From Escherichia phage vB_EcoM_WFbE185, in sequence record MK373778.1: a DNA stretch of 64,000 nt; one strand, given 5' to 3'. The notes under the pieces were generated by a model. The model ran no database searches and was not told where the DNA came from. It saw nothing but the letters and a program-made list of their open reading frames with translations. Made by a program: the position numbers and the translations under genes. This document shows positions 6,789 through 47,587 of the stretch, piece after piece. Every line of letters starts with the position of its first letter. Position 1 is the stretch's first letter.

Positions 6789-6814
6789 AATATTCTCCTC
6801 TTGTTTTGATAGGT

Positions 6815-20740: not shown

Positions 20741-20770
20741 ATCATATCATGCCTAGAGGAAGATGTAAAC
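20741..20770 (-). promoter_or_regulatory. early-type promoter (-35 GTTTAC, 18 bp, TGa-TATGAT)
   Basis: Downstream of the gene 41 hairpin, upstream of the 124-aa gene. Confidence 0.5.
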
Positions 20771-40137: not shown

Positions 40138-40359
40138 TTATCGTTTCCACCATTTCTTAACTTGAAATGAATCGACCCACACGAGTTGTTTTGGGTCTGC
40201 CTTTACAATAGGCGGACAAATTTCTGTAATAGAACCGTCGTGATATTCCTTTTCAGAAATTTTAACACAAAGAGGACCTCCCAATTTAAGGGTGAACCCT
40301 GCGTTCAGCTTTAGACGTTTAAACTTTGTTTGAACTAGCGCCATTAATGATGTCCTCAA
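40138..40359 (-). CDS. hypothetical protein (73 aa)
   Basis: ORF. Confidence 0.4.
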   Translation of the reverse strand: MRTSLMALVQTKFKRLKLNAGFTLKLGGPLCVKISEKEYHDGSITEICPPIVKADPKQLVWVDSFQVKKWWKR

Positions 40360-40643: not shown

Positions 40644-40859
40644 TTATCTCATTAAATTAAAATAAAAACGTCCATCCTCTTCAATACAGAACTCATATTC
40701 AACTGGAGTCCCGTTTATCGAAAATGACACGTCATGTGGGTTCAAAGGGTCGATGTCAAAATTAATTTTAAATTCACGACCCAACAGTTTTACCAAATAA
40801 GGGATTGCTTCGTCAAAAGGTTCTTCTAAGTAGTTAGAGATGTCAATTGTCATCCTCAT
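40644..40859 (-). CDS. hypothetical protein (start uncertain)
   Basis: Track ORF overlaps the gene 55 3' end; an internal Met was chosen; no good SD. Confidence 0.3.
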
Positions 40860-41400
40860 ATAAAAAATCCAAACTAGGCGAATCGCTAACAACTTCCTTC
40901 TTTTCAGCCCCAGGAGCTTTATAAGCGGATTCTTCATAATGCGTCATTTTATCGTAGATGTCTTGAATAAATGTTTCATCTACCAACGCTACCATATCAT
41001 CGTCATGACTGTCGTAGACATTATGAACGAAGTAACTATATTTCTTTGCAACTTCCTTACGTTCTTTTTTGATACGTTGGACAAAAGCATTAAAACAAGC
41101 TCGAGTTATGTATGCATGTGGGTTATTGTACTTAGTTTCGTCGAAATTATGAAGTCCCTTAATAGAGGCTTCAATCCCATCTGCAATCATCTCCTGCTTC
41201 CAAGACTGGGTATATCCTGAAAAGTTGAAACGTTTGGACAGGCCTTCGGCGATAAGCATAATTGCTAAACCGATGGTATCATTCTGACGAATAATTTTGT
41301 TTGGGTCTTTATTATTTAAGAGCTCCTTTTTCCACTCGATTATAGCGGCGAGAAGCTCTTTATTATTCACATAGTTATTTTTAGGTTTTTGTTCAGTCAT
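40843..41400 (-). CDS. 55: late-transcription sigma factor gp55
   Basis: [16 protein letters not shown]...[41 protein letters not shown] nearly identical to T4 gp55; start set at ATG Met7 with AAGAGGT SD. Confidence 0.9.
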
Positions 41401-41419
41401 AAGTACCTCTTGGCTCAAT

Positions 41420-41458
41420 TCATAGGTCTATTATATCATAATATTTAGAGACCTATCT
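41420..41458. promoter_or_regulatory. about 35-bp imperfect palindrome (ATAGGTCT...AGACCTAT) containing extended -10 TGa-TATAAT upstream of gene 55
   Basis: 8-bp inverted arms around an AT-rich core; the minus-strand TATAAT lies inside. Confidence 0.4.
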
Positions 41459-41472
41459 TAAAGCACGAGATA

Positions 41473-41742
41473 CTATCGGAGCAAACAATAAGCCTGAAAC
41501 ACTTTTTCCATTAAACGTTTGAACTCATGGATATCGATATAAAGCTCAGTAAGACCGGCATTATAAAGAAAATCTAAAAAGTTCTCATGTGTTTCGTTAT
41601 AGTCGCCTTCGTTTAATTGAGATACATGAGTTTCCCAAAAACCAACACCTTTAACGAATGGAAAATACGTGACTTTCATGTATTCGTCAACATAAAATTC
41701 GCCCAGCTTTTCTTCAGTTATACTGATTCGAGTTAATTTCAT
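41473..41742 (-). CDS. hypothetical protein (89 aa)
   Basis: ORF. Confidence 0.45.
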   Translation of the reverse strand: MKLTRISITEEKLGEFYVDEYMKVTYFPFVKGVGFWETHVSQLNEGDYNETHENFLDFLYNAGLTELYIDIHEFKRLMEKVFQAYCLLR

Positions 41743-41966
41743 TCTAGTTCCTTTGCTGCTTCAAGAGCAGCATCCAGCGAATCAAATTGGTCAACGAAAT
41801 CAATATTCAACGCATCGTCAACCGTAGCATATAACCACCATTGTTTGAATTCGTATTCTAGAATAAATCCAGGACCTTCAATCTGAGGAAGACCTAGACT
41901 ATTTGTACCAACTTCGTAACCAGCTAGACGCAGGTCATTAATCAAAGTTTCTGTTAATACGCTCAT
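41739..41966 (-). CDS. hypothetical acidic protein (75 aa)
   Basis: ORF with 4-nt overlap. Confidence 0.45.
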   Translation of the reverse strand: MSVLTETLINDLRLAGYEVGTNSLGLPQIEGPGFILEYEFKQWWLYATVDDALNIDFVDQFDSLDAALEAAKELE

Positions 41967-42343
41967 TTTACCGCCTTAACAATTTTAAGGTCAACGAATT
42001 TTTTCTTACGTTGATTTTTCATACGACGGATAGTCTTTTCAGAGATTTCATGTTTCTGATAAGCTTTAGATTCAACACCAAATGCAGCAACGTCAAATTC
42101 AGAAAGAATATATTGTACTAGAATTTCGCGAATAGAATTACGTCCAATTTTCTGGTCGTGTTTTTGCATGATTTCATAAAGACGGAATTCCCACGCGTCA
42201 AGAACTTGAGGAGTAACAATATTGCCGGATTCCAGAAGAGCAACAACTTTATCGAAAGCGAAAGAATTAACTACGTTTTTGATTTTAGTAGACATATTAT
42301 TTTCCTCGGTTATTTTATTATCCAACGAGAGAATTATACTCAT
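41963..42343 (-). CDS. hypothetical protein (126 aa)
   Basis: ORF. Confidence 0.45.
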   Translation of the reverse strand: MSIILSLDNKITEENNMSTKIKNVVNSFAFDKVVALLESGNIVTPQVLDAWEFRLYEIMQKHDQKIGRNSIREILVQYILSEFDVAAFGVESKAYQKHEISEKTIRRMKNQRKKKFVDLKIVKAVK

Positions 42344-42361
42344 CTCTCAAGAGTTTGTATA

Positions 42362-42601
42362 CTATTTTTTAAGCATGAAAAGTAAGTAATTTGTATCACG
42401 TGGAGTAATATCAACACCCATATCAAAGATGCCTTTATAGATTGGGTATTTGTTTTCGGTTGTATCGAAGCTGAAACTATTTCCATCACAACTAACAGTA
42501 ATAGCATCTGTTAAAATGTCATACTCAATCCTAACAATTGAATCCCCAATTTTAACGTCGAGGTGTTTTTTGAATTTGATAAAATCTAATTCTTGGGCCA
42601 T
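42362..42601 (-). CDS. hypothetical protein (79 aa)
   Basis: ORF downstream of the 12-bp inverted-repeat promoter at 42612-42655. Confidence 0.45.
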   Translation of the reverse strand: MAQELDFIKFKKHLDVKIGDSIVRIEYDILTDAITVSCDGNSFSFDTTENKYPIYKGIFDMGVDITPRDTNYLLFMLKK

Positions 42602-45303: not shown

Positions 45304-47117
45304 TGGTGTTTAACCCTATGCATGATTTCTTTATTTTTACCGAGATTAAATCCGCGTTCGTTCGGATTTCCCAAATAACCGCATGTTCTTCTTATGGTGT
45401 TCATCTTTTTAGGATCAGTTTCTCCACAAATAGAACAAACAAATCCGTTTTCAGTAGGAGTCATTTCATGGGTACTTCCACATGTAAAACATTTATCCAC
45501 TGGCATATTAACACCAAAATAATCTAAATGTTGTGCAGCATAATCCCAGACGGCCTCAAGCCCCTTTAAATTGTTTTTCATATCTGGAAGTTCAACATAA
45601 GAAATGTGACCGCCGGTCGCTATGAAATGATAAGGAGCTTCACGAGAAATTTTTTCAAACGGAGTAATATTTTCTTCTACTGAAACATGGAAACTGTTAG
45701 TGTACCAGCCTTTATCTGTAACATCCTTTACACTTCCATATTTTTCTGTATCAAGTTTACAGAAGCGATAACAAAGGTTTTCAGCAGGAGTAGAATATAA
45801 ACTAAAAGCAAATCCAGTTCTTTCAGACCACTGTTTAAGATGAGCATTCATTTTAGTTAAAATTTCTTGCCCAATATCACGACCAACAAGAATATTCAAT
45901 TCGTGAATACCAATGTATCCTAAAGACACTGAACTTCTACCGTTTTTAAATAACTCAATTATGTCGTCATCAGGTTTAAGACGAACCCCGAATGCACCTT
46001 CTTGGTAAAGAATAGGAGCAACAGTCGCTTTAACTCCTTTTAAGGAACTAATTCTACACATCAAAGCTTCAAAACACAGGTCCATTCGTTCGTTAAATAG
46101 CTCAACAAATTTCTGTTCATTGAACTGTGTTCCAATATAAGAATCTAACGCAATACGAGGAAGATTCAGTGTTACAACACCAAGATTATTACGTCCATCA
46201 AGAATTTCATTGCCAGTCGAATCTTTCCATACACTCAAGAAACTACGGCAGCCCATTGGAGAAACAGGAACTGAAGAACCGGTAATAGCTTTATTATTCT
46301 TAACCGAAATAATGTCAGGATACATTCTTTTGCTTGCACATTCTAACGCAAGTTGTTTAATATCATAGTTCGGATCATCTTTATAAAGATTAACACCTTC
46401 TTCAACAAACATAACAAGTTTAGGAAAAATAGGAGTTATTCCATCACGACCAAGACCTTTAATGCGGTTTTTAAGAATTGCCTTCTGAATCATTCGTTCA
46501 GTCCAGTCAGTTCCCGTACCAAATGTAATTGTTACAAAAGGCGTTTGTCCGTTTGAACTAAAGAGAGTATTTACTTCATATTCATAAGCTTGGAACGCGT
46601 CATAGACATCTTTTTCTGTTTTGGATTGAGCATAATTCAACGCATCAGCAATTTGCCATTTTTCTGCATCTTCAACATGTTTAGCGTATGTGCGTTTAAC
46701 ATAAGGAGAAAGAACTTTATCGACATTCGCAAATGTAGTTCCGCCATACTGGTGTGAAGCAACTTGTGCGGTAATTTGTGCCATAATTGCAGTAGCAACG
46801 CCAATAGATTTAGGCGTTTCAATTTGAGCATTGCCTAATTTAAATCCATTCTCAAGCATCCCCTTTAAATCGACTAAACAGCAATTGGTAAACGGAAGAG
46901 CAGGAGAATAATCAATATCATGCATGTGAATGATTCCGCTTTCATGCGCATTCATAATAAAAGACGGGACCATATTTTTGGCAATGTGCTTAGACACAAT
47001 ACCAGCCATAAGGTCCCGTTGAGTTGGAAAAACACGAGAATCTTTATTAGCATTCTCGTTCAAAAGATCTTTATTAGTTTTATAAATTAATCCTTCAATT
47101 TCTTTTTCAATTTTCAT
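45300..47117 (-). CDS. nrdD: anaerobic ribonucleoside-triphosphate reductase NrdD (uninterrupted)
   Basis: 605 aa; C-terminal glycyl-radical motif RRTCGYLG and zinc ribbon CFTCGS...CSICG; no intron. Confidence 0.9.
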   Translation of the reverse strand: MKIEKEIEGLIYKTNKDLLNENANKDSRVFPTQRDLMAGIVSKHIAKNMVPSFIMNAHESGIIHMHDIDYSPALPFTNCCLVDLKGMLENGFKLGNAQIETPKSIGVATAIMAQITAQVASHQYGGTTFANVDKVLSPYVKRTYAKHVEDAEKWQIADALNYAQSKTEKDVYDAFQAYEYEVNTLFSSNGQTPFVTITFGTGTDWTERMIQKAILKNRIKGLGRDGITPIFPKLVMFVEEGVNLYKDDPNYDIKQLALECASKRMYPDIISVKNNKAITGSSVPVSPMGCRSFLSVWKDSTGNEILDGRNNLGVVTLNLPRIALDSYIGTQFNEQKFVELFNERMDLCFEALMCRISSLKGVKATVAPILYQEGAFGVRLKPDDDIIELFKNGRSSVSLGYIGIHELNILVGRDIGQEILTKMNAHLKQWSERTGFAFSLYSTPAENLCYRFCKLDTEKYGSVKDVTDKGWYTNSFHVSVEENITPFEKISREAPYHFIATGGHISYVELPDMKNNLKGLEAVWDYAAQHLDYFGVNMPVDKCFTCGSTHEMTPTENGFVCSICGETDPKKMNTIRRTCGYLGNPNERGFNLGKNKEIMHRVKHQ

Positions 47118-47587
47118 TTTAAACTCTTTCTAAGCTGCTTTTTGAATGAAGCTATTAATTGTGTTTTAGTATCAGATTCATTATATTCAAATCCTCTTTG
47201 AAGCATCTCGGACATCATTTCCTCTTTACCTAGTCTTGAGAACTCTTTAGTTTTGTCTGGAACAAAATTAGGATGGATATTATTATCAGAATAATCTTGT
47301 TTCAAATAAGCAAGAAGAGATTCAAGCCATTCGAGGTAGTCGACATCACGACCTTTAAGACCAGAACGGTTGAACTTATGCTTCATTTGGCCTTCTGCTG
47401 CGTTGCACAGATTACAGAGTAACCCACGAACTCTACCTGCTTTTGGCCCGTTTAATTCGTGGTCGTGGTCAAGATGGTTACCTTGAACATCAGGGTCTAA
47501 TTCACGGTGGCAAATAGGACACTTACCGTTCTGTGCATCATAAAATTTTTGTTTTTCTTCTTTGTATAATTTGCCAGATAATAACAT
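47114..47587 (-). CDS. 49: endonuclease VII (Holliday junction resolvase) gp49
   Basis: 157 aa; MLLSGKLYKEEKQKFYDAQNGKCPIC and HLDHDHELNGPKAG closely match T4 gp49. Confidence 0.85.
   Translation of the reverse strand: MLLSGKLYKEEKQKFYDAQNGKCPICHRELDPDVQGNHLDHDHELNGPKAGRVRGLLCNLCNAAEGQMKHKFNRSGLKGRDVDYLEWLESLLAYLKQDYSDNNIHPNFVPDKTKEFSRLGKEEMMSEMLQRGFEYNESDTKTQLIASFKKQLRKSLK

Follow-up and report, generated by a model that had tools for sequence, protein, structure and literature searches.

The inverted repeat upstream of gene 55 in Escherichia phage vB_EcoM_WFbE185 could well form the inner helix of a larger hairpin in the RNA (minus strand, 41474-41402), which is conserved, surrounds the gene's own promoter, P55, and would mask the Shine-Dalgarno (SD) sequence of gene 55. 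This reading draws on the observed anatomy of the sequence, its homology to a T4 promoter, a predicted fold with its statistics, and the conservation of pairing across related phages. Throughout, the window refers to the whole stretch of 64,000 nucleotides that was analyzed (sequence record MK373778.1).

According to this model, RNA reading through from upstream early promoters via an 89-aa open reading frame would carry the whole hairpin. In such RNA, an anti-SD sequence, AGUAUCUC, that adjoins the upstream stop codon would pair with the gene 55 SD, GAGGUACU; the GCUU/GAGC, 8-bp, and apical AUAU helices would provide a scaffold joining the anti-SD and SD strands. RNA from P55 would begin at approximately position 41423, within the 3' arm of the repeat, and would have none of the 5' strands and a nearly unstructured leader of 23 nt. 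The MotA-dependent transcript from P55 would thus allow efficient translation of gene 55, whereas in polycistronic early RNA the gene would either be masked or be translated only when a ribosome finishing the upstream ORF melts the anti-SD (translational coupling).

Genomic context and the inverted repeat

By sequence, the phage is RB69-like (Mosigvirus) and of the T4 type. The 401 nt around the repeat are 100% identical in Escherichia phage APCEc01 and Shigella phage JK45; identity to HX01 is 99.8%, and all three are RB69-like relatives of T4. The genes of this region are encoded on the minus strand, and the repeat sits in the 72-nt gap between the 89-aa DUF7200 ORF and gene 55. Since gp55 switches T4-type phages to late transcription, the timing of its production matters.

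The arms of the repeat, ATAGGTCT (41422-41429) and AGACCTAT (41449-41456), are complementary at 8 of 8 positions (100%) and are separated by 19 nt, giving a total length of 35 bp. The earlier note had described an imperfect 35-bp palindrome at 41420-41458; the repeat ends two bases inside this interval on each side. Its perfect arms and 35-bp span are real, but the 19-bp core shows dyad symmetry in just two of nine possible pairs. We therefore describe the element as two inverted 8-bp arms set apart by a long spacer, and not as a true 35-bp palindrome.

By itself, the 8/8 match is unremarkable and exceeds chance only when its context is considered. Perfect 8/8 inverted repeats with loops of 3-25 nt occur 81 times in the window (51 distinct centers), compared to an expectation of 39 ± 7 (29 ± 5 centers) from Markov-1 simulations. 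In contrast to the repeat alone, the 22 nt upstream of the TGn element form a duplex of -10.7 kcal/mol with the gene 55 leader (p = 0.019 vs. shuffles), and the complementarity of the arms is conserved in related phages.

Promoter P55 and its MotA box

Read along the sense strand, the region consists of the MotA box TGCTTTA, 23 nt, the extended -10 element TGATATAAT, and the gene 55 leader. By homology, this promoter is the orthologue of the T4 middle promoter P55, the start of which is listed at position 40180 among mapped middle promoters (Hinton, 2010, Table 1; PMC2988021). In the T4 record, position 40180 is an A seven bases after TATAAT, corresponding to base 7 of the 3' arm, and the homologous base in the window is 41423. 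From the MotA box to GAATTGAG, 49 of 52 positions agree between the two phages. They share TGATATAAT, a location 23 nt ahead of the gene 55 ATG, and the inverted repeat, which in T4 includes one G·T pair; however, the start and MotA dependence were mapped in T4, whereas their counterparts in the window are assigned by homology. The homology to T4 P55 and its start at 40180 (PMC2988021) therefore bear out two proposals of the earlier note, namely that the repeat overlaps the gene 55 promoter and that its core contains the extended -10, which lies at 41438-41430 on the minus strand, 29 nt upstream of the gene 55 ATG.

Transcription from T4 Pm55 has been reported to be strongly MotA-dependent, and early transcripts from Pe40.4 have been reported to extend through gene 55 (PMC6024815); the supplements of that study contain no Pm55 sequence. 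The T4 middle-promoter consensus comprises a MotA box, (a/t)(a/t)(a/t)TGCTTtA, centered at -30 and 11-13 bp from the -10. In the window, TGATATAAT provides the sigma70-type -10 of middle promoters (TAnnnT with TGn). The spacing of the MotA box departs from the canonical one: a perfect TGCTTTA is found at 23 nt, and the canonical position reads AGGTCTC. P55 alone in the window has this 23-nt arrangement (1 found, 0.00 expected), compared to 13 canonical arrangements.

Eight lineages retain a spacing of 22-23 nt between MotA box and TATAAT, roughly one helical turn more than the canonical one, namely the window, T4 (L001, 1688-1723, minus strand), L011, L015, L023, L026, L170, and L177. L016-type phages are 11 nt shorter, which restores the canonical MotA spacing. 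Despite this noncanonical spacing, T4 Pm55 is reported to be MotA-dependent. An alternative -10, AAATAT, located 12 nt after the MotA box, was considered and rejected; the T4 start at 40180 fits TATAAT instead, and distant lineages have no -10 at that position.

Predicted RNA hairpin

The 86-nt RNA from 41480 to 41395 (minus strand) is predicted to fold into one hairpin of -24.0 kcal/mol (z = -3.39), and none of 200 shuffled sequences folded as well. The hairpin comprises four tiers, of which the inverted repeat supplies the third, the inner stem (Table 1). The GCUU of the MotA box (41464-41461) doubles as the 5' strand of the middle stem. The corresponding T4 RNA folds alike (-22.7 kcal/mol, z = -3.31), with different bases in the outer stem, UUCA.CCUCU x AGAGGUGAA. 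An RNA starting at 41423 reaches only -2.2 kcal/mol.

Table 1. Features of the gene 55 leader region and -10 boxes of other window promoters whose spacer is complementary to a downstream SD region. Positions are those of the window.
Feature	Position	Strand	Sequence or property	Basis
Gene 55, late sigma factor gp55	40843-41400	-	90.7% identical to T4 gp55	
Upstream 89-aa ORF, DUF7200	41473-41742	-		
UAG stop codon of upstream ORF	41473-41475	-	pairing of the outer stem begins with its A and G	fold
Outer stem	41474-41467 / 41409-41402	-	AGUAUCUC x GAGGUACU (gene 55 SD)	predicted fold
Anti-SD	41467-41474	-	RNA AGUAUCUC, DNA sense AGTATCTC; 5' strand of outer stem	predicted fold
Gene 55 SD and spacer	41402-41409	-	RNA GAGGUACU, DNA sense GAGGTACT; 3' strand of outer stem	predicted fold
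MotA box	41459-41465	-	TGCTTTA; -42 to -36 from inferred start	sequence
Middle stem	41464-41461 / 41416-41413	-	GCUU x GAGC	predicted fold
Inner stem	41456-41449 / 41429-41422	-	8-bp helix of the inverted repeat	predicted fold
5' arm of repeat	41449-41456	-	sense AUAGGUCU; promoter positions -33 to -26; 5' strand of inner stem	
3' arm of repeat	41422-41429	-	sense AGACCUAU; -6 to +2; inferred start A at 41423	T4 homology
Apical mini-stem	41433-41444	-	AUAU/AUAU with loop UAUG; overlaps TG and start of -10	predicted fold
Extended -10 of P55 orthologue	41430-41438	-	TGATATAAT; TG 41438-41437, TATAAT 41435-41430; apical part of hairpin	
-10 box, regB	61862	-	duplex -22.8 kcal/mol	
-10 box, 105-aa ORF	20313	-	duplex -22.7 kcal/mol	
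-10 box, 184-aa ORF	7401	-	duplex -22.5 kcal/mol	
-10 box, 79-aa ORF	42638	-	duplex -17.4 kcal/mol	

In long RNAs, the SD (GAGG) has a predicted pairing probability of 1.00. For RNAs beginning at 41423, this probability is 0.6-1.0 in the window and 0.3-0.7 in T4, varying with the length of downstream sequence included. Among 73 gene leaders of the window, that of gene 55 ranks sixth by folding z-score and fifth by SD pairing; however, 23% of these leaders have an SD pairing probability of at least 0.9, and this measure alone is therefore weak and does not discriminate. The leader of gene 49 (endonuclease VII), a known case of masking in T4, is near the top by both z-score and SD pairing. This leader (47640-47587, minus strand, upstream of the gene at 47114-47587) contains UAUAAAUA followed by a hairpin, CCCUUAUC...GGUAAGGG, over the SD region. 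It has the arrangement known from T4 gene 49 and served as a positive control for the ranking of leader structures.

A search against Rfam at E ≤ 10 returned only noise (snoRNA and miRNA models well below the gathering score), with no match at the hairpin. An intrinsic terminator was also rejected as an explanation. The stems are followed by GAAUUGAG and UAUGACUG, there is no U-tract after any of them, and a scan of 40800-42400 found no terminator-like sites.

Conservation of pairing

Between T4 and the RB69 type, both partners are exchanged in three pairs of the outer stem adjacent to the SD (U-A/A-U, U-A/G-C, and C-G/U-A). T2-type phages have the SD and spacer of T4 and a different upstream sequence; here CUGAUAU pairs with AUGUCAG, with the result that the start codon is also covered. 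One T2-type metagenome contig (L163, OIWM01000017.1) has, approximately 70 nt upstream of gene 55, CUAAUAU in place of CUGAUAU; this change in the distal strand breaks a G-C pair with AUGUCAG and is uncompensated.

For the inner stem, we counted haplotypes in 50,697 phage records, of which 638 carry the variable pair. This pair is G-C in 146 records (RB69 type), A-T (A-U in RNA) in 467 (T2 type), and G·T (G·U) in 25 (T4, T6, PST, RB55, and RB59); A·C was found in none of the 638. The G·T combination is a wobble pair only in the sense-strand RNA. A second G·U variant of the inner stem occurs in L166, and A·C was met solely in L004, a recombinant from a metagenome. L166 was the one new variant recovered by a metagenome scan with free arms, which yielded just nine loci. 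A scan of viral contigs anchored on the loop (AAATAYTATGATATAAT) was left unused, as this anchor is too AT-rich and gave at least 120 unrelated matches.

We also evaluated covariation in fixed columns of a MAFFT alignment of 12 sequences. It was not significant, with 58 of 500 shuffles reaching the observed covariation score; 95.8% of inner-helix cells were paired and one pair was changed on both sides. In this alignment, the outer stem is out of register between T4 and the RB69 type, and the Mot box of L011 is one column off. Given this weak and misregistered count, we relied on tests of duplex energy that compare cognate with non-cognate sequences and with shuffles.

In seven lineages (L015, L016, L023, L025, L026, L170, and L177), the 22 nt upstream of TGnTATAAT are unrelated in sequence. 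These 22 nt are nevertheless still complementary to their own leader, and the complementarity is directly to the SD, for example CCUCUCGCUUC x GAAGCGAAGAGG, GGCCUC x GAGGCC, and CUUCCG x CGGAAG. L170 is Klebsiella phage Wolf_ER13 and L177 is a Karamvirus. Lineage-specific complementarity was found in 9 of 11 lineages (p < 5e-4). Across the 11 lineages, which include one negative and of which few are truly independent, cognate duplexes averaged -11.4 kcal/mol compared to -8.7 kcal/mol for non-cognate ones (permutation p = 3e-4). Shuffles that preserved composition averaged -6.8 ± 0.7 kcal/mol, and 0 of 2000 were as good as the cognate mean of -11.4. A looser test, in which the 52 nt upstream were compared with the translation start region, gave p = 0.014. 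The architecture was absent from the more distant T4-like lineages L019/L021, L030-L035, and L171-L176; in L019/L021, TGATATAAT is kept and the anti-SD is absent.

The same design at other promoters of the window

The octamer AGACCTAT is present in eight copies in the window compared to 1.8 expected, and none of 100 shuffled sequences reached eight. Seven copies are in the sense orientation, with ATAGGTCT on the plus strand at 6809, 12786, 20300, 39322, 41422, 53805, and 55282. Besides that of P55, five copies directly follow the -10 of GTTTAC-type early promoters in the form TAYTAT-AGACCTATC. AGACCTAT has the appearance of a conserved promoter box of this phage, spanning discriminator and start site. 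The 3' arm is thus also a general promoter motif placed after the -10, and some of its conservation reflects constraint on the DNA.

At several of 27 promoters predicted by regular expression, the spacer between -35 and -10 matches, as its reverse complement, the SD region of the gene that follows. The strongest duplexes are listed in Table 1; an example at a GTTTAC-type promoter is TTCTCCTCTAGTTG...CAACTAGAGGAGAA. Over the 27 promoters with a downstream gene, cognate duplexes differed from non-cognate ones with p = 1.4e-4. Promoters of this kind look like the PeSL cassettes described in T4-like phages, and their stem would mask the SD on read-through RNA. Spacer/SD complementarity was also recorded for the minus-strand -10 boxes at 20746 and 43766.

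Alternative explanations

The earlier note had suggested that the repeat is a symmetric site for a dimeric DNA-binding protein. Its arms are perfectly dyad-symmetric and bracket the -10 at -33 to -26 and -6 to +2, where a bound phage or host protein would block RNA polymerase and so occlude the gene 55 promoter. However, the centers of the half-sites are 27 bp, or about 2.6 helical turns, apart and hence face opposite sides of the helix, whereas binding to one face would be expected at about 10-11 or 21 bp. The core between them lacks symmetry. Outside close relatives, the pairing of the arms is conserved but their sequences are not: arms change by compensation (G-C to A-T), the tolerated single changes remain G·U in sense RNA but would mismatch a symmetric site, and the replaced arms of other genera still pair, now with the SD. 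Moreover, the 3' arm AGACCTAT is generic, following the -10 of five early promoters as well as P55; the complete dyad occurs once in the 64-kb window, and the other copies of the motif all have one orientation. The reviews of T4-type phages consulted here name no phage-encoded repressor that binds a palindrome, and no such repressor is known in T4 or known to be described for T4-type phages. Based on the spacing, the asymmetric core, the single orientation of the motif, and the replacement of the arms in other genera, we rejected the operator hypothesis, which we regard as highly improbable. The note's broader idea that the site is a control point survives in altered form: it probably is one, at the level of RNA, and the DNA-operator version is unsupported.

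An alternative view would be that the complementarity has no function, the two arms being constrained separately as promoter DNA and their 8/8 match being a coincidence fixed by descent. The 5' arm, at -33 to -26, would serve as a site for sigma region 4 or MotA, and the 3' arm as the shared discriminator and start motif AGACCTAT. In keeping with this view, 8/8 repeats are frequent (81 compared to about 39 expected), AGACCTAT is overrepresented (8 vs. 1.8) and mostly found right after -10 boxes, and C is favored at -3 to -1 in RB69 early promoters. Furthermore, identity between T4 and the window is about 94% over the whole 70-bp region and not just in the arms, and fixed-column covariation was not significant. 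Yet the duplex between spacer and leader is better than in shuffles, both for the window (p = 0.019) and across lineages (0 of 2000). Nor would separate constraint lead one to expect the exchange of G-C for A-T with G·T as the sole intermediate in 638 records, the retention of pairing in other genera that have swapped both sequences, or the outer and middle stems, which lie outside the original observation and prolong the same helix axis. We therefore consider separate constraint rather unlikely.

It is also improbable, in our estimation, that the stem-loop belongs to a PeSL/PmSL cassette in which it attenuates, terminates, or processes upstream transcription and serves mainly as a homology patch for modular recombination. 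The layout does match, in that an upstream stop, a promoter, a stem-loop over the -10, an SD, and a start codon follow one another. The upstream gene changes at exactly this boundary, since 55.1 of T4 has no relation to the DUF7200 ORF found in the RB69 and T2 types; in L004, a crossover within the loop joins upstream sequence of the T2 type to a gene 55 of the RB69 type; and a reporter assay showed termination by one PeSL stem-loop of RB49. Against this, the stems have no U-tract and 40800-42400 no terminator-like site, T4 early transcripts do reach into gene 55 (PMC6024815), and recombination alone would leave unaccounted for the SD as pairing partner in many lineages. On the combined in silico and literature evidence, a role in recombination is supported for the cassette, whereas termination or attenuation is not. 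The cassette reading is compatible with masking of the SD, and the two do not exclude each other.

Some further details concern this boundary. T4 gp55.1 (87 aa; L001, 1694-1957, minus strand) has no similarity to the 89-aa DUF7200 ORF at the same position, and the point at which T4 diverges from RB69-type and T2-type sequences is exactly the 5' edge of the cassette. In L004 (1153-1560), the crossover lies in the conserved loop and creates the sole A·C mismatch seen.

Comparison with known systems

The masking hairpin proposed here has precedents in T4. Hairpins that sequester the SD and have an internal promoter are found at e, soc, 49, and I-TevI, and the internal promoters of gene e are late (Uzan and Miller, 2010; PMC3014915). 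Gene 55, which is missing from that review's list of genes with SD-masking hairpins, resembles them in that its SD is predicted to be paired in RNA initiated upstream. As in these genes, its proximal promoter starts within the structure and its transcript is made without the 5' strand. The internal promoters of soc, 49, and I-TevI are late, as are those of e. In contrast, the promoter of gene 55 is a sigma70/MotA middle promoter with TATAAT, TGn, and a Mot box, and without TATAAATA. The hairpin here also differs in regulating the gene of the late sigma factor and in having several tiers. Its anti-SD adjoins the upstream ORF or is part of it, a placement suggestive of coupling. We therefore view the gene 55 hairpin, as modeled, as a variant of the mechanism of e, soc, 49, and I-TevI and not as a classical case of it.

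PeSL cassettes consist of a stop codon, a promoter, a stem-loop between -35 and -10 or overlapping the -10, an SD, and an ATG; PmSL is the variant with a Mot box, described only for nt-1 (PMC2839356; PMC4122927). Their stem-loop has been interpreted as terminating or attenuating transcription and as offering a patch for recombination (Arbiol, 2010, PMC2839356; Comeau, 2014, PMC4122927), and masking of the ribosome-binding site is unmentioned in both papers. The gene 55 site has the same compact layout, with all elements within 41475-41398, and likewise lies at a boundary between variable and conserved genes, with related modules recurring in the genome. Its promoter is of the Mot-box type, like that of the nt-1 PmSL; the cassette has no -35 box, and its Mot box is at 23 nt and not at the canonical distance. 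PeSL stems pair G-tracts with C-tracts, whereas those of gene 55 are AT-rich and have no terminator features. P55, SD-masking hairpins with an internal promoter, and PeSL/PmSL cassettes are thus already known, and the gene 55 hairpin would add one more example; our literature search found no paper on a gene 55 leader hairpin and no genome-wide map of T4 transcription starts.

Proposed translational gating of gene 55

We infer that the hairpin forms in vivo and affects translation. The position of the anti-SD bears on that effect. In the RB69 type it adjoins the upstream stop codon, UAG, as it does in the T2 type, where the stop is TAA; in T4 and L011 it lies within the upstream ORF. Ribosomes that complete this ORF should hence open the anti-SD strand, and polycistronic RNA would probably show coupling and not complete silencing. 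When T4 infects without MotA (motA-), read-through RNA has been proposed to make up for the lost P55 (PMC6024815), a proposal with which coupling is consistent and from which it follows that any masking would be leaky or relieved by coupling.

If the SD is masked on early RNA and open on P55 RNA, the hairpin would constitute a safeguard at the RNA level in the cascade from early to middle to late transcription, of a kind undescribed for gene 55. High levels of gene 55 RNA in motA mutants would then not necessarily mean high levels of gp55. If, on the other hand, there is no masking, the site is an ordinary conserved promoter.

More tentatively, it is possible that RNA structure gates gp55 translation to its own MotA transcript or to ribosomes of the upstream ORF, and that the stem-loops of T4-like PeSL cassettes are chiefly "translational insulators." Such gating would give the cascade from early through middle to late genes a timer that acts after transcription. 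As insulators, promoter spacers would encode the anti-SD of the downstream gene, so that each gene would be translated mainly from the transcript of its own promoter; this differs from the published reading of PeSL stem-loops as terminators. The spacer/anti-SD design at regB and several other early genes suggests that such a role may apply to PeSL stem-loops generally.

One feature at the 5' end of the P55 transcript was seen in passing. A transcript from 41423 would open with AUG-AAU-UGA, a 5'-terminal mini-ORF of two codons (41423-41415, minus strand). The corresponding string UAUGAAUUGAG is conserved in T4, RB69-type phages, and L015, with L011 having UAUGAUUUGAG; L015 retains UAUGAAUUGAG despite having no inverted-repeat arms.
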